Source of the DNA: Alphaproteobacteria bacterium
GTDB lineage: Bacteria; Pseudomonadota; Alphaproteobacteria; Rs-D84
Reading direction: 5' to 3'
NCBI GenBank assembly: GCA_017618175.1
Contig: JAFZUT010000022.1
Location: 14,723-78,722, forward strand
DNA length: 64,000 nt
Part shown: positions 2,485 through 17,266 of the stretch, one piece after another
How the letters are laid out: every line of letters starts with the position of its first letter
How positions within the stretch are numbered: position 1 is the first letter of the stretch
The notes under the pieces: model-generated
Seen by the model: the letters and a program-made list of their open reading frames with translations, nothing else
The model's database searches: none
Told to the model about the DNA's origin: nothing
Made by a program: the position numbers and the translations under genes

Positions 2485-2790
2485 TTTTGCCGGGTTTCTG
2501 GTGCCAGGCACCCGGCATGCCCCGCAAAAAGCTAAACGAACATAATCAACAATTGCCAATTATATTCAACCTAACTATTAGGCAGCCATTGCAAGACGAA
2601 CATTATCGTTCGCATTCATTTTTTTATTGGTTTTTAACGACACCATGTCGGATTCAGCCATTTGCCTTTATTGCGCCTGTCGAAACTTATACACCCCCAT
2701 ATTTTTTATTGGTGGAGGTGCCGGGTACCGCCCCCGGGTCCAAAACGTCTATTCCGCAACGGGTTCAGAATCATCGTCACTTTCGTGACC
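2485..2790 (-). ncRNA. ssrA: Two-piece (circularly permuted) tmRNA: acceptor piece about 2790-2710, 11-nt spacer, coding piece about 2698-2485
   Basis: The minus strand reads ...GGACCCGGGGGCGGTACCCGGCACCTCCACCA, then ataaaaaatat, then GGGGGTGTATAAGTTTCGAC.... GGGGGTG pairs with CACCTCC and includes a G3:U70 wobble, and the acceptor piece ends in ACCA. The tag reading frame GCG AAC GAT AAT GTT CGT CTT GCA ATG GCT GCC TAA TAG (2613-2575) encodes ANDNVRLAMAA. The 5' and 3' ends are approximate. Confidence 0.85.
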
Positions 2791-2795
2791 TATTG

Positions 2796-2823
2796 ATTAT
2801 AATCTTTATACTGGAAATTGCAA
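2796..2823 (-). promoter_or_regulatory. Sigma70-type promoter for ssrA
   Basis: TTGCAA (2823-2818), 16-nt spacer, TATAAT (2801-2796) on the minus strand, about 7 nt upstream of the first tmRNA hairpin. Confidence 0.6.
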
Positions 2824-2831
2824 GTTTTTAA

Positions 2832-6473: not shown

Positions 6474-6541
6474 CGTAATTCCAAATGCGGGGCGCGGGCA
6501 CAACAAATTCAAACCGTCTCTGCGTGACAATTTGAATTTAT

Positions 6542-6586
6542 TGGCGCACCCGGCGCGATTCGAACGCGCAATCCCCGCCTTCGGAG
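6542..6586 (-). pseudogene. 3' half of a split tRNA-Arg(CCG): anticodon loop, 3' anticodon stem, variable loop, T arm, acceptor 3' strand and CCA. This is one island junction.
   Basis: Minus strand reads CTCCGAA GGCGG GGATT GCGCG TTCGAAT CGCGC CGGGTGC GCCA. The sequence upstream of it (…GTCCTGAAA) is not tRNA-like. Confidence 0.85.
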
Positions 6587-6671
6587 TTTCAGGACTTGCA
6601 AGATACACGACCTATACTTTCCCTAGATTTCCGCGGGTTTTGGCAGGTGCTAGTTTTTTGCTAAAACTATC

Positions 6672-6692
6672 TGGCTAACCTATGGCTAACTT
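6672..6692. repeat. Left-arm copy of the 21-bp repeat TGGCTAACCTATGGCTAACTT (two GGCTAAC units)
   Basis: Identical 21-mer at 12893-12913. Probably integrase arm-type binding sites. Confidence 0.6.
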
Positions 6693-6728
6693 TCTGGATA
6701 AAACCAAATAAATTTTTCGCAAGTTTTC

Positions 6729-6805
6729 TGGCGCACCCAGCAGGATTCGAACCTGCAACCTTGTCCTTCGGAGGGACACGCCATATCCAGTTAGGCCATG
6801 GGTGC
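6729..6805 (-). tRNA. Complete island-borne tRNA-Arg (anticodon CCG)
   Basis: Minus strand reads GCACCCA TG GCCT AACTGGATA TGGC G TGTCC CTCCGAA GGACA AGGTT GCAGG TTCGAAT CCTGC TGGGTGC GCCA. All stems pair. By hand alignment there are 17 differences from the split host copy, mostly compensatory changes in stems. Confidence 0.9.
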
Positions 6806-6905
6806 ACTTGCTTGTATTATATATAAAGTTAAATAAAAAGCAAATACCCAATGTAATTTTTTATAAGCAAAGTATAGTCATTTAAGTTTTCGTCGCTATA
6901 CGCCG

Positions 6906-6915
6906 CCCCCCCCCC
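6906..6915. repeat. Poly-C tract (10 C) in island intergenic DNA
   Basis: cgccg-CCCCCCCCCC-ggccg, read directly from the sequence. Confidence 0.9.
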
Positions 6916-6950
6916 CGGCCGCGAATAAATTCGCGTCAGGTTCTTTCCAC

Positions 6951-6979
6951 TTTTAAAAATATATTTTTTATGATATAAT
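6951..6979 (+). promoter_or_regulatory. Extended -10 promoter driving the island structured RNA
   Basis: TGaTATAAT at 6971-6979, with a weak -35 TTTAAA 17 nt upstream. Confidence 0.55.
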
Positions 6980-6985
6980 TCGCAT

Positions 6986-7205
6986 TGAATCCAAGAGATT
7001 GGGTTCAGGGTTATCTCAAACCCGGTATCTTCGGTGCGAAAGCATCGTAATCTGATGTTATCGGTGTTTTCTGCACCGTTATCAGCCCTGACTTATGGTC
7101 GGGGAGTCGTTGGTTATAAAATAGGGGAAACCCGAAAACCACGAAATCATTAAGATACTGATTTGAGAACTCCCTGACCGCTCTTTCTTGGGCGGTTTTT
7201 GTTTT
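6986..7205 (+). ncRNA. Structured RNA of unknown class, either a stand-alone sRNA or a riboswitch-like leader of the 7222 gene
   Basis: Promoter upstream and an intrinsic terminator at 7176-7205. A long-range closing helix pairs TCAGGG/TCTCAAA (7005-7020) with TTTGAGA/CCCTGA (7162-7177). Three GNRA-capped hairpins are present: CCAA-GAGA-TTGG, GGTGC-GAAA-GCATC and GGG-GAAA-CCC. There are also hairpins at 7051-7084 and 7086-7104. Confidence 0.55.
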
Positions 7206-7221
7206 GATATAGAGGCAAACG

Positions 7222-8253
7222 ATGGTAATAAAATCAACATTATTTATAATAACAATAGCTTTTACAGTGTTTCCCATAAAAATTAAGGCGATTGAAAATA
7301 ATACTGTACAATCGAATAAGACAGAACAACAATTTAAGCGACAGTTGGCAAACCAACTCGGTTTATACAATATAAATACCGATGATATAAAAGCACCATC
7401 ATACAATGAATTTCGTTATGCTTTACAAAAACTGACTAATTCGGTTCAATCTTGGTCTACAAACAATCAAGAAAAAGTAATTGAAGCACTGGGAATGTAT
7501 ACCGTCACATTTGGTGTCAACAATATGATTACGTACTGCAAACCTCACTATTCAATGGATAAATTAACCAAAGTATACGATTCTCAAATTATCAGTAAAA
7601 GAGAAACGGCAAAAAATATAATTGTTAAAGCTGGCGGAACAGATTTATTAAAAATATTCGATGATTTATATAACAATAATTCGGCGCTTTTTGCTACCAG
7701 TGTGAATACAGATTATTTGTTGGCAAGAAAGGAATCAGAAATACAGGGTATCGCGAACTTAACAAAAGACCAATATTGCAAATCCTTAGATGATGCGGCG
7801 TATATAGTACCGAGTACTATTGAAAAATTAGCCAAACAAGTGTTAAATCAAGCTAAACAAACAGCAAACCAAACCAAGAGTTCTAATGTTAACAGGTCTA
7901 ATGGTTATATAAATCAACCATACTCGGGCACAACAAAAGTAACCAACAATTATTCACAATACTCTCGTAATTCAATTAGTAATCATGCTTCTGACAGAGC
8001 TATTGGTCGTGCTTTAGGGTGGGCTATTTTTCCTATCCTTATACTAATTTTGGAACTGCTTAGATATATTAAAAATTTATTACGAAATGCTACCAGTAAT
8101 ATGGGCGAACAGGTTAAACAAAAATATATAAAACATAAAAACGAGCAAGAAAAATACCGCAAATATCTGAGAGATTGTGATAAACGTGGCAAAACACCAC
8201 TAAGCTATAAACAATGGAAATTTGCATATGCCGACAAGAAGGTAAAAAAATGA
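7222..8253 (+). CDS. Island cargo protein A: signal peptide, about 260-aa ectodomain, one TM helix, conserved basic C-terminal tail
   Basis: GAGG Shine-Dalgarno. Starts MVIKSTLFIITIAFTVFPIKIKA. TM helix WAIFPILILILELL. Tail KYRKYLRDCDKRGKTPLSYKQWKFAYADKK. AT-rich. Confidence 0.75.
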   Translation: MVIKSTLFIITIAFTVFPIKIKAIENNTVQSNKTEQQFKRQLANQLGLYNINTDDIKAPSYNEFRYALQKLTNSVQSWSTNNQEKVIEALGMYTVTFGVNNMITYCKPHYSMDKLTKVYDSQIISKRETAKNIIVKAGGTDLLKIFDDLYNNNSALFATSVNTDYLLARKESEIQGIANLTKDQYCKSLDDAAYIVPSTIEKLAKQVLNQAKQTANQTKSSNVNRSNGYINQPYSGTTKVTNNYSQYSRNSISNHASDRAIGRALGWAIFPILILILELLRYIKNLLRNATSNMGEQVKQKYIKHKNEQEKYRKYLRDCDKRGKTPLSYKQWKFAYADKKVKK

Positions 8254-8747
8254 AAAAAATTGTAAGTTTAATAGTAGTAATTGTTGGGTGTATCGGGGTT
8301 CAAATTTATTCTAACGCCCAGAATATAAAATCATATGATACTTATGAACGTGATTCTATGCCTGTAGTACCGTATCCACTTAGCGAGCAGCAACATAATG
8401 TGACATTTGACTGGAATAAAGCAAAAGCTCGTTATGCCGCCAGAAACGAAGATTATGTAGGATATTATTTAGCACCCGAAGCTGGGAAATTGAATTTATG
8501 GGATGAATTTATGGATAAAAATTGGCGTTGGGCAACACCAGTTGTGCTTATTTTAATACTGGTCATCGTCAATTTTATACTGATATACATGAGTTATTTA
8601 AATAACAAATATGTTGAGCCATGCCGAAAAAGAACACAGAAACAAATAACGAAATACAGAAAATATTTGATGGATTGTGACAAACGCGGGAAAACACCGC
8701 TAACCTATAAGCAATGGAAATTTGCGTATGTAGATAAAAAAGCATAA
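8250..8747 (+). CDS. Island cargo protein B: signal peptide, short ectodomain, TM helix, and the same C-terminal tail as protein A
   Basis: ATGA overlap with the upstream gene. Starts MKKIVSLIVVIVGCIGVQIYS. TM helix VVLILILVIVNFILIYM. Tail KYRKYLMDCDKRGKTPLTYKQWKFAYVDKK. Confidence 0.75.
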   Translation: MKKIVSLIVVIVGCIGVQIYSNAQNIKSYDTYERDSMPVVPYPLSEQQHNVTFDWNKAKARYAARNEDYVGYYLAPEAGKLNLWDEFMDKNWRWATPVVLILILVIVNFILIYMSYLNNKYVEPCRKRTQKQITKYRKYLMDCDKRGKTPLTYKQWKFAYVDKKA

Positions 8748-8757
8748 AAACGTTCAT

Positions 8758-8800
8758 TTTCCCAAAATTCCCACTATATTGTGTGTGGGAATTTGGGAAA
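8758..8800. terminator. Long perfect hairpin between convergent island genes
   Basis: TTTCCCAAAATTCCCAC (8758-8774) pairs with GTGGGAATTTGGGAAA (8785-8800). Confidence 0.65.
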
Positions 8801-8808
8801 TAGCGACT

Positions 8809-10614
8809 TTATGCTGAGTGTTCGGATAGTATACGCTGGACCTTGGATTTAGAAATACCGGTTTCATCGGCTATCTCGATAATGGTTTTACCAGAATTGC
8901 GAAGTTCTATAATGCGTTTATGGACGGATTCCGCGGGTGTGTCCTGCAATACCCATTTTAAACCGACAGTTTTTCCATATTCGTCTTTAACCGATACCAG
9001 TTTGGCGGCAAATGGCTTTACATCATCGCCACATATTCCCCTGGACTTATGATATTCAACCAATATGTCCGCGCCATCACTAGTTTTATGTGCTGGTGAA
9101 ACTTCCAAGGCGATAGAACTGTTTAAAATGGCTTCTATTGCAGACGAACCTCGCGGGCCACGATTTTTATCTTTTCCCGTGTGATGCAACCACAATATTG
9201 ATTTGCCCTTGCTGCGCATCTTACGCGACCAAGCATTATAACCCGTCCAACTGTCCGCATCATTTTCATGACCGGCGGTGTATAGAGAAAATATATTATC
9301 AATTATTATCAAACTAACGTCGTTCGTAAAAGCCTCTATATGTTTTTGTCCTTCTGTTTTTGCAATATCTGGCATAGTCGCATTATCCTGAAGCCCCGAC
9401 AAAAACAATCTTATGTTCTCACGAATTACGATTTTGCCTTCAGAAGCAAAGCCGTTTATCAATAAATTGAGGCGTGTTTGCATCTCGTTAGCATCCATTT
9501 CACCATCAATATATAATACTTTGCGTGGTTTGTTTGCTCGAAAGTTCAAAAATTCAAATCCGCCAGCAACTGCACAAGCAATAGCCAGTGCCATAAATGT
9601 TTTGCCGGCGCCCCTTTCGGCATATAGCAATGATAAACCGTTTTCCGGAATCATTGGATATAGGACATATTCTGTGGGCGGAAGCTCTTGTCGCAAAAAA
9701 TCAGCAGCATTTATAATCCGATAACCACCGGTTAATGGGCGCATAGTAAGCGCCAGCACAGCCACTATCTCGGATTTAACTTTATCTAGCCCCTGATATA
9801 CCGCAATATCATTAAAATCGGACATGCCATGCGTAGTTATATTCGGAATACATAATTGCGCATTTATGGAATTAGCGGCATTAGTTGCATAATCAACACC
9901 TGTATTTTTGTCCTTTTCCCAATCATTATCGGCAGCGATTACTATACGAGCATTCGGATATTTAGCACGTATGGATTGAGCAACCGGTTCTAAATTACCG
10001 GCATCCATAGCCGCAACTGTATATTCACCCACAGCGGCATAAATACTGGCGGCGGTAGCAAAACCTTCACATATAACAATTGTGTCGCCTGGGGTACCAA
10101 ACGGACAAAAACAACCCTTTTTACGGCCACCAGCCATAAATCTTTTATCGCCATTTGTCGAGATATATTGTAGCGACCACAATTTATCGTCTGTATCATA
10201 CAGTGGAACAACAAGCGAATCTGTTTTAGGATTGTATTTTGCGGGGCCGGCAGATACACATTTGCATTTTAAATATGGGTGTGCATCGGGTGCTGTGCCC
10301 ATCTTGTCGTATTCGCGTTGAGCAGTTTCGGCCACGGTTTGTTGTGCCTGTTGTTGTTCTTTGATAAATAATTCACGTTGTTTGGCGATTTTAATATTCA
10401 AATCGCGTTTTTCGTCCGGGCTTAATTCATATGTGGAATCTGGAAAAGCGTAGAATCTATCGCCTGACACCCAATCTCCAAATGCGTATCCATCTCCGCA
10501 TTGTATTAACCAATACTGATTGTGGTGGCCCCAGCGTGTGAACCCGTCAGGTATAATTTGTCTTGGTAATTCAATTTGGTGTGCGTTTAATGCGTTTATT
10601 AAAAACTGTTCCAT
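8809..10614 (-). CDS. Bifunctional primase-helicase: Toprim primase domain, RepA/AAA_25-like RecA-fold ATPase and C-terminal HTH
   Basis: Toprim motifs VICEGFATAAS and VIAADNDWEKD. Walker A YAERGAGKTF. Walker B-like LIIIDN. C-terminal IIELRNSGKTIIEIADETGISKSKVQRIL. Confidence 0.8.
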   Translation of the reverse strand: MEQFLINALNAHQIELPRQIIPDGFTRWGHHNQYWLIQCGDGYAFGDWVSGDRFYAFPDSTYELSPDEKRDLNIKIAKQRELFIKEQQQAQQTVAETAQREYDKMGTAPDAHPYLKCKCVSAGPAKYNPKTDSLVVPLYDTDDKLWSLQYISTNGDKRFMAGGRKKGCFCPFGTPGDTIVICEGFATAASIYAAVGEYTVAAMDAGNLEPVAQSIRAKYPNARIVIAADNDWEKDKNTGVDYATNAANSINAQLCIPNITTHGMSDFNDIAVYQGLDKVKSEIVAVLALTMRPLTGGYRIINAADFLRQELPPTEYVLYPMIPENGLSLLYAERGAGKTFMALAIACAVAGGFEFLNFRANKPRKVLYIDGEMDANEMQTRLNLLINGFASEGKIVIRENIRLFLSGLQDNATMPDIAKTEGQKHIEAFTNDVSLIIIDNIFSLYTAGHENDADSWTGYNAWSRKMRSKGKSILWLHHTGKDKNRGPRGSSAIEAILNSSIALEVSPAHKTSDGADILVEYHKSRGICGDDVKPFAAKLVSVKDEYGKTVGLKWVLQDTPAESVHKRIIELRNSGKTIIEIADETGISKSKVQRILSEHSA

Positions 10615-10826
10615 TATTGCCCCCTTTGGTCTGAATTAACTTGATTGCGTTTTTGTTGGTCCAAGTACGCCATAACTTCATCACAGTCGTATAAAACCCG
10701 CCCGCCAATTCGGGTCCATGGTATAGGGCAAATTTTACTGGTGCGCCACCGTTCAATGGTATTGCGTTTTATGTGTAACAAGTCGGCCAATTCGCCGGTT
10801 GTTAAATAACGATTTGCAAAAATCAT
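10614..10826 (-). CDS. AlpA/excisionase-family HTH protein (70 aa)
   Basis: LTTGELADLLHIKRNTIERWRTS...GGRVLYDCDEVMAYL matches the excisionase-type HTH pattern. It sits directly upstream of the primase gene. Confidence 0.7.
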   Translation of the reverse strand: MIFANRYLTTGELADLLHIKRNTIERWRTSKICPIPWTRIGGRVLYDCDEVMAYLDQQKRNQVNSDQRGQ

Positions 10827-10903
10827 GTATTCTCCTTTTGTGTTAATTTTACAATTTAACTGTGGCCACCGTTGACATTGTTAAAAGCAATGTAAATCGC
10901 TAT

Positions 10904-10937
10904 TAAAAAAATACGACCGCTAAGAATCGTATTTTTG
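10904..10937 (-). terminator. Terminator after the int-orf212 unit
   Basis: AATACGA/TCGTATT hairpin followed by a 7-T run on the minus strand. Confidence 0.55.
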
Positions 10938-10996
10938 TAACTTGTTATTTTTACTAGACAAATATAAAATTATATACGAATTGTATATGAACCAGA

Positions 10997-11635
10997 TTAG
11001 ATTCTACGATTCGCGTTGCGAAACTTTTCAAATATTTTTGGAAATCTCATGATTATTTGCTGTTTCGTGGCATTAGGTTGGTATGCGCCTTTGCGAAATC
11101 CAGTATACCAGGTCGTAACAGTATTAAATGTTGGAATCTGTATCTTAAATTCTGGCAATACGTCTTTAAGCAAATTATATAACGATTTGGCCGGTATATG
11201 GTTGTAGGTTTTATAGCAATAAAAAGCAATATCGTGTGCCGGGCTATCACGCCTGACAATAGAGTTTGATTCTTTTGGTAATGGTGGAAATGCTTCACGC
11301 AATTTATCGGCCAACAAACAAACGCCGTAATAATATTGACCGCACATAGCGATAACCATATCATCTGGTACGTGCATCTCCATGTCCGGGGCAAAACTCG
11401 TTATTTCCGCATCTTCTATTTTTCCGGTTTTATCATTTTCTACGCTAGCAACCGCTATAATTTCATTATTGTTTGGTAAAAACTCTTCAAAATCAGGTGT
11501 CAGATATCCGTACAACAACGTTTCGGATTTTGACAATAATTCATCGTTTTCTAGGATGAGTTGCTTGGACGGTTTTATATTCCTAAACGCTATCCAATAC
11601 AACGACTCTAACAGGTCGTAATATTCTTTTTTCAT
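10997..11635 (-). CDS. Island hypothetical protein (212 aa), coupled to the integrase gene
   Basis: 4-nt ATGA overlap with the integrase stop codon. No motif recognised. Confidence 0.6.
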   Translation of the reverse strand: MKKEYYDLLESLYWIAFRNIKPSKQLILENDELLSKSETLLYGYLTPDFEEFLPNNNEIIAVASVENDKTGKIEDAEITSFAPDMEMHVPDDMVIAMCGQYYYGVCLLADKLREAFPPLPKESNSIVRRDSPAHDIAFYCYKTYNHIPAKSLYNLLKDVLPEFKIQIPTFNTVTTWYTGFRKGAYQPNATKQQIIMRFPKIFEKFRNANRRI

Positions 11636-12840
11636 TGTGCTACTCCTGTGTTTGGTGGGGTTATTTTTGCGGCGGCAACCATCTGGTCTGCGGCCCGTTG
11701 AATACTTTGCCGCACCGGGTCTTCGGTAAGGCGTGCGTAAATTGGTATTACGGCCGGCGACTTATCGCCCAATGCTTTGCCGATAATCTCGTTTGAAGAG
11801 CCTGTGATTGCTTGATAACTGGCAAATGTGCGCCGCAAATCATGCAAGCGCAAATCGGTTAATCCGGCGCGTTCTTTCATTGTGCGCCACGCGACTTGCG
11901 GGTTTTCAAGATGCCCACTGCGTGATTGTTTGCTTGGGAATAACCAAGTGCTAGTTTTGAAAGTTTCCATTTCGTGTAATAAATCTATGGCCTGGGTGGA
12001 TAATGGTACGATTTGTGGTTCACCATTTTTTGTTGTTTTTATATATGCGACCCTGCGTTCAAAATTTATGTCCGACCATTGCAGAGCTTGGATATTGCGC
12101 CTGCGTTGGCCCATAAAAAGGCTTAATAGTATGAAATTACGCGATGCCGCATTTGGAATTTTTGCGACTTCTTGGAAAAACACGCTCAATTCGTCGGGTT
12201 GTAAAAATCTGTCGCGTTTATTTTCAGGAAACAGTTTTATTCGCGCGGCGGGATTTGTGCACGGGAATCCCCAATCTATGGCTTTGTTGAACATTTGTCG
12301 CATAAGTTTTAATCCGCGGTTAGCCGAATAAACGCTTTTTGTGCGTCGCCATATTTCGTTGTGCATGCGTTCCATGTCGGCACGTGTCAATGTCAACATT
12401 GTTGCCCTTTTTATAGTGTCCGGAACATAAAGACGCATAGATATTTTATCCATTTTCTGCGATTCCGCTTTTTTTCGCATGACAGAATAGTCAGGGAAAT
12501 AGTATTGGTCGAAAAATTCCTGCACGGTTATGGAATCACGAATCTTGCGTTTGGCATCGTTAGGATTTTCGCCACGGTTGGTTTGCTCTATTAGTTCGGC
12601 CATACGCTTCCGCGCGTTTTTTAATGACGTATTATTGGCGTCGCCGATTTTATGAAATATTGTGCGATTGCCAACCTTTTTGAGCAAATAATAAATCTTG
12701 TTGCTTGAACTGACACGCAACACAAGGTTTTTGATTGTCGTGTCGTAATATACCAACCGTTGTCCGGGTTGCGCATACGGTAATGATTCTACGGTGGCTT
12801 CGGTGAAATTAAATCTGCGTTCTTTTGTTGTTGTAGGCAT
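11632..12840 (-). CDS. int: Tyrosine recombinase / phage-type integrase with an N-terminal arm-binding domain
   Basis: R...HDLRRTFAS...IPIYARL catalytic pattern. Start chosen at MPTTTKERRF because it has an AAGGGGA Shine-Dalgarno. The longer ORF (to 12870) would overlap the GGCTAAC repeats. Confidence 0.85.
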   Translation of the reverse strand: MPTTTKERRFNFTEATVESLPYAQPGQRLVYYDTTIKNLVLRVSSSNKIYYLLKKVGNRTIFHKIGDANNTSLKNARKRMAELIEQTNRGENPNDAKRKIRDSITVQEFFDQYYFPDYSVMRKKAESQKMDKISMRLYVPDTIKRATMLTLTRADMERMHNEIWRRTKSVYSANRGLKLMRQMFNKAIDWGFPCTNPAARIKLFPENKRDRFLQPDELSVFFQEVAKIPNAASRNFILLSLFMGQRRRNIQALQWSDINFERRVAYIKTTKNGEPQIVPLSTQAIDLLHEMETFKTSTWLFPSKQSRSGHLENPQVAWRTMKERAGLTDLRLHDLRRTFASYQAITGSSNEIIGKALGDKSPAVIPIYARLTEDPVRQSIQRAADQMVAAAKITPPNTGVAQ

Positions 12841-12860
12841 CGTTTTTCCCCTTTGGGTCT

Positions 12861-12913
12861 GGCTAACCATTCTGGCTAACCGGACGCGTGGGTGGCTAAC
12901 CTATGGCTAACTT
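12861..12913. repeat. Right-arm cluster of four GGCTAAC units, including the 21-bp repeat copy at 12893-12913
   Basis: GGCTAAC at 12861, 12874, 12894 and 12905, directly upstream of int. Confidence 0.6.
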
Positions 12914-13033
12914 ATTTAATAAATTTCCCGCCTACCGCATAAAGCATTTTACAACGGTAAAGCCGTAAAGCTAGGGAAAAATATAAAGTTTTATAAATCC
13001 TACGAAAGCCGCAGAAAACAACGAGTTTTTAAA

Positions 13034-13072
13034 TTCGGAGGGCGATGCTCTATCCAGTTAAGCCACGGGTGC
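13034..13072 (-). pseudogene. 5' half of the split tRNA-Arg(CCG): acceptor 5' strand, D arm, 5' anticodon stem and anticodon loop. This is the other island junction.
   Basis: Minus strand reads GCACCCG TG GCTT AACTGGATA GAGC A TCGCC CTCCGAA, followed by non-tRNA sequence (TTTAAAAACTCG...). Confidence 0.85.
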
Positions 13073-13121
13073 GTACGCCACGGGGTATTATATTGTTTTT
13101 ATCGTGAAATGCAAGCCCTAA

Positions 13122-16387: not shown

Positions 16388-17266
16388 ATGAGAATCAGGT
16401 CCTCGATAATGTTGGGCATATTATTATCTTTTATGGTTCTGTGCGCGGTTCGCGCGGATTCCACGGTCACATCCAAATCGTATGTAGATTCACGTGATGC
16501 GTTAAAGCAGGACAAAATCTCGGCTGCCGGTGACTTTTATAACCCCCAAGGCGGCTCATCAATTGTTACGCGCACCGAGACTCCGGGTGCACTTGCCGAA
16601 TTATGGATTGCGTATACAAACGAAGATATGTTTGGGACGATATATGGCACGGCTACACATTCTGATAGTGTGCCGACCTCATTTGTTGTTGCCGAAAATT
16701 TTGCCAATTTGTTTCAAAGAGTTGAAAATGTTGAAAACACTATACCCTACGTTGATAATTTTCAAACAAGAATCCCGGCAAGGGAAACCGGCGCGGTTGT
16801 CGTATATAATGGTGTCGATGGAAACGGTCAAACACAATTTGGTGAATTGGCGGTCTTTCCGGCGGACGACACATACAACGCGGGAACCGATGCCGACAAA
16901 TTGGCAACCATGGGTGCCGTTATGGCCAGTATGGCAGCGTCCGGATCCCAACCGGCGTTGTCCGGAACCGGTGGCGCAATCGTTACGTATGGTGCAAGCG
17001 TGGGCGAAACGGATGAAAGGGCGATTTTGAATGGGCAATATGAAGCGAGTAAAAGCGCTCATATCCCGACCGCGGGCGCGGTGGCGGCGGCCGTTCAAAC
17101 GATTGGCAATCAACCAATCAGTGTTATGGAATGTGCCAACCCAGAGTGTACATTGTGGAATATATCGCAACGCACGGTATTGTCGCCGAATAACAATGCG
17201 CCTTATTCCGGCAGTGCCTTCGTTAATCCAAATGATTACACCGGATACACACCGTATAATCCATAA
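16388..17266 (+). CDS. Secreted hypothetical protein (292 aa)
   Basis: GGAG Shine-Dalgarno. Signal peptide MRIRSSIMLGILLSFMVLCAVRA. Thr/Gly/Ala-rich. Confidence 0.65.
   Translation: MRIRSSIMLGILLSFMVLCAVRADSTVTSKSYVDSRDALKQDKISAAGDFYNPQGGSSIVTRTETPGALAELWIAYTNEDMFGTIYGTATHSDSVPTSFVVAENFANLFQRVENVENTIPYVDNFQTRIPARETGAVVVYNGVDGNGQTQFGELAVFPADDTYNAGTDADKLATMGAVMASMAASGSQPALSGTGGAIVTYGASVGETDERAILNGQYEASKSAHIPTAGAVAAAVQTIGNQPISVMECANPECTLWNISQRTVLSPNNNAPYSGSAFVNPNDYTGYTPYNP

Follow-up and report, generated by a model that had tools for sequence, protein, structure and literature searches.

Within a 64,000-nucleotide stretch of contig JAFZUT010000022.1 (assembly GCA_017618175.1, positions 14,723 to 78,722), which was analysed as a whole and is called the window here, a tRNA-Arg(CCG) gene of an alphaproteobacterium is split in its anticodon loop by an integrative island that carries a complete tRNA-Arg(CCG) of its own. 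The two pieces of the host gene lie on the minus strand, where 13072-13034 reads GCACCCGTGGCTTAACTGGATAGAGCATCGCCCTCCGAA and 6586-6542 reads CTCCGAAGGCGGGGATTGCGCGTTCGAATCGCGCCGGGTGCGCCA; a preceding sequence-only reading of the window had both base-for-base correct. When joined through the CTCCGAA that they share, the pieces form a 77-nt sequence that ARAGORN calls as tRNA-Arg(ccg), with 7/7 pairs in the acceptor stem, 4/4 in the D stem, 5/5 in the anticodon stem and 5/5 in the T stem, which bears out the canonical tRNA proposed in that reading. From core to core, the insert that parts them measures 6,454 bp.

The core common to the attachment sites attP and attB is exactly 7 bp, CTCCGAA, which is the anticodon loop and is too short to rebuild a tRNA. 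At attL, it makes up the last 7 nt of the host 5' piece (13040-13034) and the sequence continues into the island as ...CGCC CTCCGAA TTTAAAAACTC, with no tRNA call. Neither ARAGORN nor Rfam calls a tRNA at either island junction, as expected from the earlier claim that neither regenerates the gene. In canonical elements, attP carries the anticodon stem-loop and 3' half of the target and the gene is regenerated, such that attL holds an intact gene and attR a direct-repeat fragment of it; the attL found here holds no such gene. Upstream of the orphan 5' piece lies a putative host tRNA promoter that now faces the island interior towards the integrase gene, int. It was missed by a consensus scan because its -35 hexamer matches at only 3-4/6 positions.

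The complete tRNA-Arg(CCG) that had been read in the island was found by both ARAGORN and Rfam (Table 1). This cargo tRNA lies near the attR core as previously described, the distance being 142 nt rather than the 143 given at that time. The earlier count of differences from the host copy also held: 17/77 positions differ, mostly at paired stem positions (7/67, 27-30/42-44 and 52-53/63-64), and the anticodon loop is identical to that of the host. Direct GTTAGCCA repeats of arm type occur on both sides of the core, consistent with the compact module of tRNA, arm, core, arm and int that had been proposed. The window contains seven GTTAGCCA octamers, six of them at 6672-6690 and 12860-12911; approximately one is expected by chance, and seven were reached in 0/100 shuffles.

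Table 1. Positions of the split host tRNA, the attachment module and the island genes in the window; the last row refers to related islands
Feature	Position	Strand	Evidence or remarks
Host tRNA-Arg(CCG) 5' piece, attL	13034..13072	-	acceptor 5' strand, D arm, 5' anticodon stem, 7-nt loop
attR: core CTCCGAA (6586-6580) and displaced host 3' piece	6542..6586	-	3' anticodon stem, variable loop, T arm, acceptor 3' strand, CCA
Putative host tRNA promoter, TTGCAT-N16-TATAAT	13087..13114	-	read by eye
Inverted repeat (I19), possible host terminator hairpin	6501..6543	-	just past host tRNA 3' end; function putative
Complete island (cargo) tRNA-Arg(CCG), CCA encoded	6729..6805	-	ARAGORN; Rfam tRNA 64.8 bits; all stems pair
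Putative cargo-tRNA promoter, TTGCTT-N16-TATAAT	6843-6816	-	read by eye
P arm, two direct GTTAGCCA arm-type repeats	6672..6690	-	between cargo tRNA and core
P' arm, four direct GTTAGCCA arm-type repeats	12860..12911	-	between core and int start codon
Tyrosine integrase, 402 aa, arm-binding N-terminal domain	11632..12840	-	Pfam Arm-DNA-bind_3 1.7e-08, Phage_integrase 5.9e-21; PHROG 1 integrase 1.2e-53
orf212, no assigned function	10997..11635	-	ATG overlaps int stop codon as ATGA
AlpA-like HTH_17 protein, 70 aa, candidate excisionase or regulator	10614..10826	-	Pfam HTH_17 2.8e-12; PHROG 66 excisionase/regulator 1.8e-09
Primase-helicase, 601 aa, replication module	8809..10614	-	Toprim_3, AAA_25 and C-terminal helix-turn-helix; PHROG 2249 DNA primase 5e-66
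Two cargo open reading frames	7222..8747	+	343 aa at 7222-8253; 177 aa at 8214-8747
Defence-like variable slots of related islands	L019:13525-15997; L015:13573-16827; L016:11426-15441; L263:4738-5766		

From attL inwards, the island consists of the P' arm repeats, int, orf212, the AlpA-like gene, the primase-helicase gene, two cargo open reading frames (ORFs), the cargo tRNA, the P arm repeats and the core. All six ORFs are intact, and all genes lie on the minus strand except the two cargo ORFs, which lie on the plus strand. Integrase residues R211, H333, R336 and Y368 are invariant across 31 homologues. The product of orf212 has no Pfam or PHROG match; a gene in the same position is also present in relatives of the island, as are the arm-type repeats of the P' arm. 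The two cargo ORFs have no Pfam, PHROG or PADLOC match and share a C-terminal 99-nt repeat (D1; window 8152-8250 and 8652-8750, 81% identity) that encodes KYRKYL.DCDKRGKTPL.YKQWKFAY; their products look like paralogous membrane or secreted proteins. No island ORF has a PHROG match to virion or structural, packaging, lysis or repressor proteins. The host has an alpha-type permuted two-piece tmRNA (window 2486-2827, 172.8 bits), one of the features that assign it to the Alphaproteobacteria, and the genomes closest to it are metagenome-assembled genomes of Candidatus Enterousia, a gut lineage with genomes mostly below 1 Mbp (PMC12306168). In layout the element resembles a satellite; it is an integrative and self-replicating island, and its host is Candidatus Enterousia-like and has a reduced genome. 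An origin as a prophage or phage was considered and set aside, there being no close integrase relative and no tRNA of the cargo type in IMG/VR.

Between the cargo ORFs and the cargo-tRNA promoter, the minus strand has 11 consecutive G residues (window 6906-6916) after a short hairpin. ERZ27256899 breaks at this run, with contigs that end at 6915 and start at 6888, and G- or C-rich runs also lie upstream of the cargo tRNA in two of the related islands described below (L263 and L268). The run could be a phase-variable tract or a mere difficulty for the assembler.

Island-free forms of the locus were located in ENA and JGI samples through exact-protein look-ups of the flanking genes. Five independent island-free metagenome contigs (L011, L254, L255, L256 and L260) carry an intact tRNA-Arg(CCG) that is 77/77 identical to the reconstruction and that alone separates the two flanking genes; its 5' part is identical to the host 5' piece in the window. 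The empty attB predicted by the sequence-only reading therefore exists at the same locus, and its proposal that a functional gene was cut at the 7-nt anticodon loop by a 6.45-kb integrase element is upheld. In the case of L011, positions 1-931 correspond to window 13964-13034 and positions 925-2862 to window 6586-4666, with an overlap of exactly 7 nt, and because these flanks are 98.5-99.7% identical we regard it as an island-free strain of the same species. The attB junction reads ...CATCGCC CTCCGAA GGCGGGG..., and the predicted attP junction is ...GTCCTGAAA CTCCGAA TTTAAAAACTC....

The occupied junctions recur at 99.9-100% identity across six or more independent assemblies (ERZ27256916, ERZ27256899, ERZ28653445, ERZ28653966, ERZ28653971, ERZ28018702 and Logan SRR12529217). 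Two Logan contigs (SRR12529217 and SRR12529212) stop at 13034, the final base of the core, and the SRR12529217 contig of the island begins 30 nt ahead of this position; assuming k=31, we infer that these ends mark an assembly-graph branch at which occupied and empty forms coexist. The failure to detect an attP circle would fit a canonical tRNA-regenerating element that lost its 3' half and survives as an immobile, decayed remnant, or else a chimeric assembly, yet either explanation is hardly credible given that the island ORFs are all intact, that presence of the island is polymorphic among near-identical strains, and that the two Logan contigs end precisely where an occupied/empty branch predicts. 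Chimeric junctions had been named at the outset as grounds for abandoning the proposal, and the reproduction of both junctions in independent assemblies removes those grounds. Furthermore, the architecture is conserved in at least ten islands whose integrases are 53-88% identical to that of the window, which indicates that it is under selection. On the attR side, one contig (L012, Logan SRR12529217_642971) begins at window 6571, which is 15 nt inside the displaced 3' half; an occupied/empty branch alone predicts a start at the core (6586).

Homologues of the integrase at 53-91% identity are numerous in metagenomes, and the loci retrieved share one order: host 5' half, core, arm, int and further genes, cargo tRNA, arm, core and host 3' half. 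Arg-CCG is both target and cargo in the window island and in L014, L015, L016, L017, L019 and L268, and Arg-UCU is both in L021, L271 and L269, where the gene is split at TTTCTAA. The cargo anticodon is thus that of the target in 10/10 islands including that of the window (seven CCG and three UCU) from different host species, with the qualification that the L268 contig ends within the cargo tRNA, leaving attR off the contig, and that the 5' junction of L269 is likewise off its contig. Insert sizes range from 6.45 to 10.06 kb, and the cargo tRNA lies 130-144 bp from the attR core in the islands where both were measured. Loci represented by the 5' junction only include further Arg-UCU (L018, L020 and L265-L267) and Arg-CCG (L094 and L095) targets, as well as a tRNA-Gly-UCC split after CTTCCAA (L022; JAISGC010000064.1, 7450-7743) next to an integrase 57% identical to that of the window. 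At L022, no tRNA was found in the 10 kb downstream, up to the contig end.

Of the six other Arg-CCG islands, L014-L017 and L019 occupy a syntenic locus between prfB and a lipoprotein gene, in species whose prfB sequences are 78-94% identical, and L268 lies in a different gene neighbourhood. The split halves vary by host, with covarying changes in the acceptor, anticodon and T stems. Cargo tRNAs are 71-77/77 identical among five of the six Arg-CCG islands compared, and the L019 cargo is identical at 57-63/77 positions. The replication modules of the relatives comprise a DUF3631 protein or, in L268, a replicase with a faint DUF3987 match, and their variable slots contain defence-like genes (Table 1) whose products include an OLD-family ATPase with DUF488, a UvrD/GajB-like helicase with a zinc ribbon, a KAP NTPase and a PLD-family nuclease. 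These slots resemble the defence hotspots of phage satellites.

Two variations affect the tRNA genes themselves. In L014 (JAZROX010000027.1, Candidatus Enterousia sp., 17040-17180), the T arm of the displaced 3' half has acquired an insertion of approximately 68 nt, and a functional tRNA could therefore not be regained by excision in that genome. On two Logan contigs (L263:550-910 and L264:1340-1700; SRR17409829 and SRR17409848), an island whose integrase is 69% identical to that of the window lies inside the anticodon loop of a cargo-type tRNA-Arg(CCG), and the 1.25 kb upstream of the insertion matches the interior of the L017 island at 70-77% identity. Such nesting implies that a cargo tRNA can itself act as attB, which would permit tandem arrays and serial replacement.

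The agreement of cargo and target also bears on what the cargo tRNA is for. Were it carried mainly for another purpose, such as evasion of tRNA-cleaving nucleases or codon supplementation, its match to the target would be incidental. A role against tRNA-targeting defences has been proposed for phage tRNAs (PMC10865867), and relatives of the island do carry defence-like cargo. We nevertheless consider this very unlikely, as the two anticodons agree in every one of the ten islands across two target specificities, and the cargo anticodon loop is not altered from that of the host as nuclease evasion would predict. CGG is moreover rarer in island genes than in host genes (3.4 versus 5.6 per 1000 codons), the host ORFs of the window using it in 31/39 cases.

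Reportedly, Williams in 2002 described P4/CP4-57-type integrases in canonical tRNA islands with crossover in the anticodon loop. The island shares with such elements its integrase superfamily and its anticodon-loop crossover, but differs in that their int adjoins the displaced 3' fragment on the opposite strand, whereas here int is co-directional with the 5' half. The same division runs through the integrase relatives. Those at 48% identity or less are canonical and target Asn, Met, Thr, Leu and other Arg tRNAs. Immediately upstream of their int, on the other strand, lies a tRNA fragment that begins with the anticodon stem-loop and extends to the 3' end, and the regenerated tRNA is present at the far end where the locus reaches far enough (e.g. 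L026 and L040). Members of the non-regenerating clade have int next to the 5' half and in the same direction as the tRNA. One locus combines features of both: L096 (Ga0310786_10100843, 1-262) has an integrase 50% identical to that of the window and the same GTTAGCCATAGGTTAGCC arm repeats, together with a canonical layout in which the anticodon stem-loop and 3' half of a tRNA-Arg(UCU) lie upstream of int on the opposite strand. A quick neighbour-joining tree clusters the non-regenerating islands with L096, of canonical orientation, falling among them, a pattern that fits one origin or several.

We consider it very probable that the island depends on its own tRNA for integration, in that attP shares only the anticodon loop with its target and the island tRNA compensates for the split host gene. 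According to this model, the arm-binding tyrosine integrase would recombine attP with the host tRNA-Arg(CCG) gene at CTCCGAA. As attP lacks a tRNA 3' half, integration leaves two dead halves, the 5' half at attL beside int and the 3' half at attR, and the separately promoted cargo tRNA would keep CGG decoding in the integrant. In a genome with a single such gene, integration without the cargo tRNA would be harmful or lethal. Precise excision, probably with the AlpA-like protein, would rejoin the halves and restore the host gene. Transcription from the host tRNA promoter, which still precedes the orphan 5' half, may extend into int; no terminator is predicted between promoter and int. The model supposes that the cargo tRNA is expressed and needed and that the host, for which an 85-kb contig was covered, probably has no other CCG isoacceptor; the use of CGG in 31/39 host ORFs and the small genomes of Enterousia bear on this only indirectly.

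Several findings weigh against this interpretation. The circular attP junction GTCCTGAAACTCCGAATTNNAAAACTCG, a check put forward with the sequence-only reading, is absent from IMG/VR and from JGI metagenome searches, and a regular-expression search for attP in the fetched loci, to which L263 and L264 were added only later, likewise found none. IMG/VR contains nothing close to the integrase clade, with identities of 31% or less, and no helper phage or transfer function was identified. The island is presumably moved by a helper phage or other vehicle. Hybrids of host and cargo tRNA halves were also absent by regular expression from the loci fetched before L263 and L264 were added.

Three further ideas concerning the module were considered and set aside. 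The cargo anticodon stem (GTCC/GGAC) does not appear to shield the cargo tRNA from the integrase of its own island, as L263 and L264 show a cargo-type tRNA with a related island inside it, and such self-protection by a differing stem is further contradicted by the host-like stem of the L019 cargo. The notion that a whole tRNA is carried in order to avoid a misfolded hybrid of host 5' and island 3' halves found only partial support: acceptor pairs in such hybrids number 6-7/7, and anticodon-stem pairs 3/5 in the main clade and 5/5 in L019. Lastly, no state-dependent switch of an int promoter was evident, since int has a tRNA promoter upstream of it whether the island is integrated or circular.

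It had also been suggested that, if the genome has no other CCG isoacceptor, the island acts much as an addiction or stabilisation module, destroying the only CGG decoder of the host and supplying its own so that loss would be lethal. It is true that the host gene does not function as long as the island occupies it, that a deletion not mediated by Int would take away the sole working copy, and that the L014 3' half could not be repaired by excision. However, site-specific excision rebuilds the gene, which is intact in conspecific strains that lack the island and have flanks of 98.5-99.7% identity. Because excision rejoins the halves into an intact host gene, loss by this route is unpenalised, and the cargo tRNA makes better sense as the condition under which an integrant survives than as a means of post-segregational retention. 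In the phage systems that have been studied, the cognate tRNA likewise serves survival of the integrant and not post-segregational killing. Addiction-like stabilisation is thus a weak proposal and unlikely as the primary function; dependence would arise only secondarily, once the split halves decay, as in L014.

The arrangement has precedents, as it has already been published under the name of tRNA-dependent lysogeny (PMC10865867), with a similar case in PMC11476347. Guerrero-Bustamante and Hatfull (mBio 2024, PMC10865867) demonstrated it genetically in mycobacteriophage Fionnbharth and others, and the tRNA-dependent actinobacteriophages include Fionnbharth (K4), cluster L, Cain, Gaia, BrutonGaster, OneUp and Mollymur, with prophage Lj965 of Lactobacillus johnsonii cited as a further case. 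In these phages, the common cores are 8-17 bp and the cognate phage tRNA is required for lysogen survival; close relatives are canonical, and target and cargo tRNA switch together. The attP orientation is inverted between the canonical and tRNA-dependent relatives Omega and Gaia (PMC10865867). The island resembles these phages in its lambda-type tyrosine integrase with arm sites, its attB in a tRNA gene, a very short core (7 bp) that rebuilds a tRNA at no junction, and its cognate tRNA-Arg(ccg) at 6729-6805, as well as in having canonical integrase relatives and a family-wide change of cargo tRNA with target. It differs in being a 6.45-kb non-phage element without virion, lysis or repressor genes, in its Gram-negative alphaproteobacterial host with a reduced genome, and in a cargo tRNA that belongs to the att module, at a set distance of 130-144 bp from the core. 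The tRNA requirement was shown by experiment in the phages, whereas the island is known from its sequence.

Other elements match in part. In Sinorhizobium meliloti, an inactivated tRNA gene is replaced by a prophage-related tRNA of the same isoacceptor (Int J Mol Sci 2024, PMC11476347; 2025, PMC12429752); by description, these elements share the alphaproteobacterial host and the isoacceptor substitution, but they are prophage-like, measure 3-89 kb and reside in a large tRNA-redundant genome. The PICMI satellites of Vibrionaceae are approximately 6 kb and carry int, an ATGA-overlapping iolg, alpA, a primase and small, possibly anti-phage cargo (Barcia-Cruz et al., Nat Commun 2024, PMC10803314). 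They integrate downstream of fis with 17-bp repeats, have a DUF3987/DUF5906 primase and carry no tRNA (PMC10803314). The island likewise co-localises int, an ATGA-overlapping ORF, alpA and a primase in an element of approximately 6 kb, but it targets the tRNA-Arg anticodon loop instead of fis, its host does not belong to Vibrionaceae, and its primase has Toprim_3 and AAA_25 rather than DUF3987/DUF5906. It is also unlike P4-like satellites, as no psu, delta, sid or ash/eps is present, orf212, orf343 and orf177 having no PHROG match. No published description of tRNA-dependent integration in satellites or other small islands was found.

The mechanism itself is therefore not new; what differs is the vehicle, the host, and the tight, conserved tRNA-attP-int module. 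These data extend tRNA-dependent integration from temperate actinobacteriophages to a minimal satellite-like island and to uncultured gut Alphaproteobacteria with genomes mostly below 1 Mbp, as a strategy conserved throughout a clade in which target and cargo tRNA change together (Arg-CCG or Arg-UCU). Island finders that seek a direct repeat of a tRNA 3' fragment will overlook such elements, and tRNA annotation of these metagenome-assembled genomes will list the island-borne gene as the Arg decoder of the organism. The 400-bp module of tRNA, attP and int is also a candidate self-complementing integration cassette.

More tentatively, and with somewhat less than even confidence, we suggest that the islands of these sub-megabase genomes take part in a relay, every new arrival inactivating the Arg decoder already in place and substituting the one that it carries. 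This cargo tRNA would be the next attB, as in L263 and L264, and the orphan halves would decay, as in L014, such that the only CGG (or AGA) decoder of the host would come to be owned by a mobile element. If this is the case, carriage of a whole tRNA would free the island from having to match the stems of its host and would open to a single island lineage species that show 15 or more differences among the 77 positions of the tRNA body.

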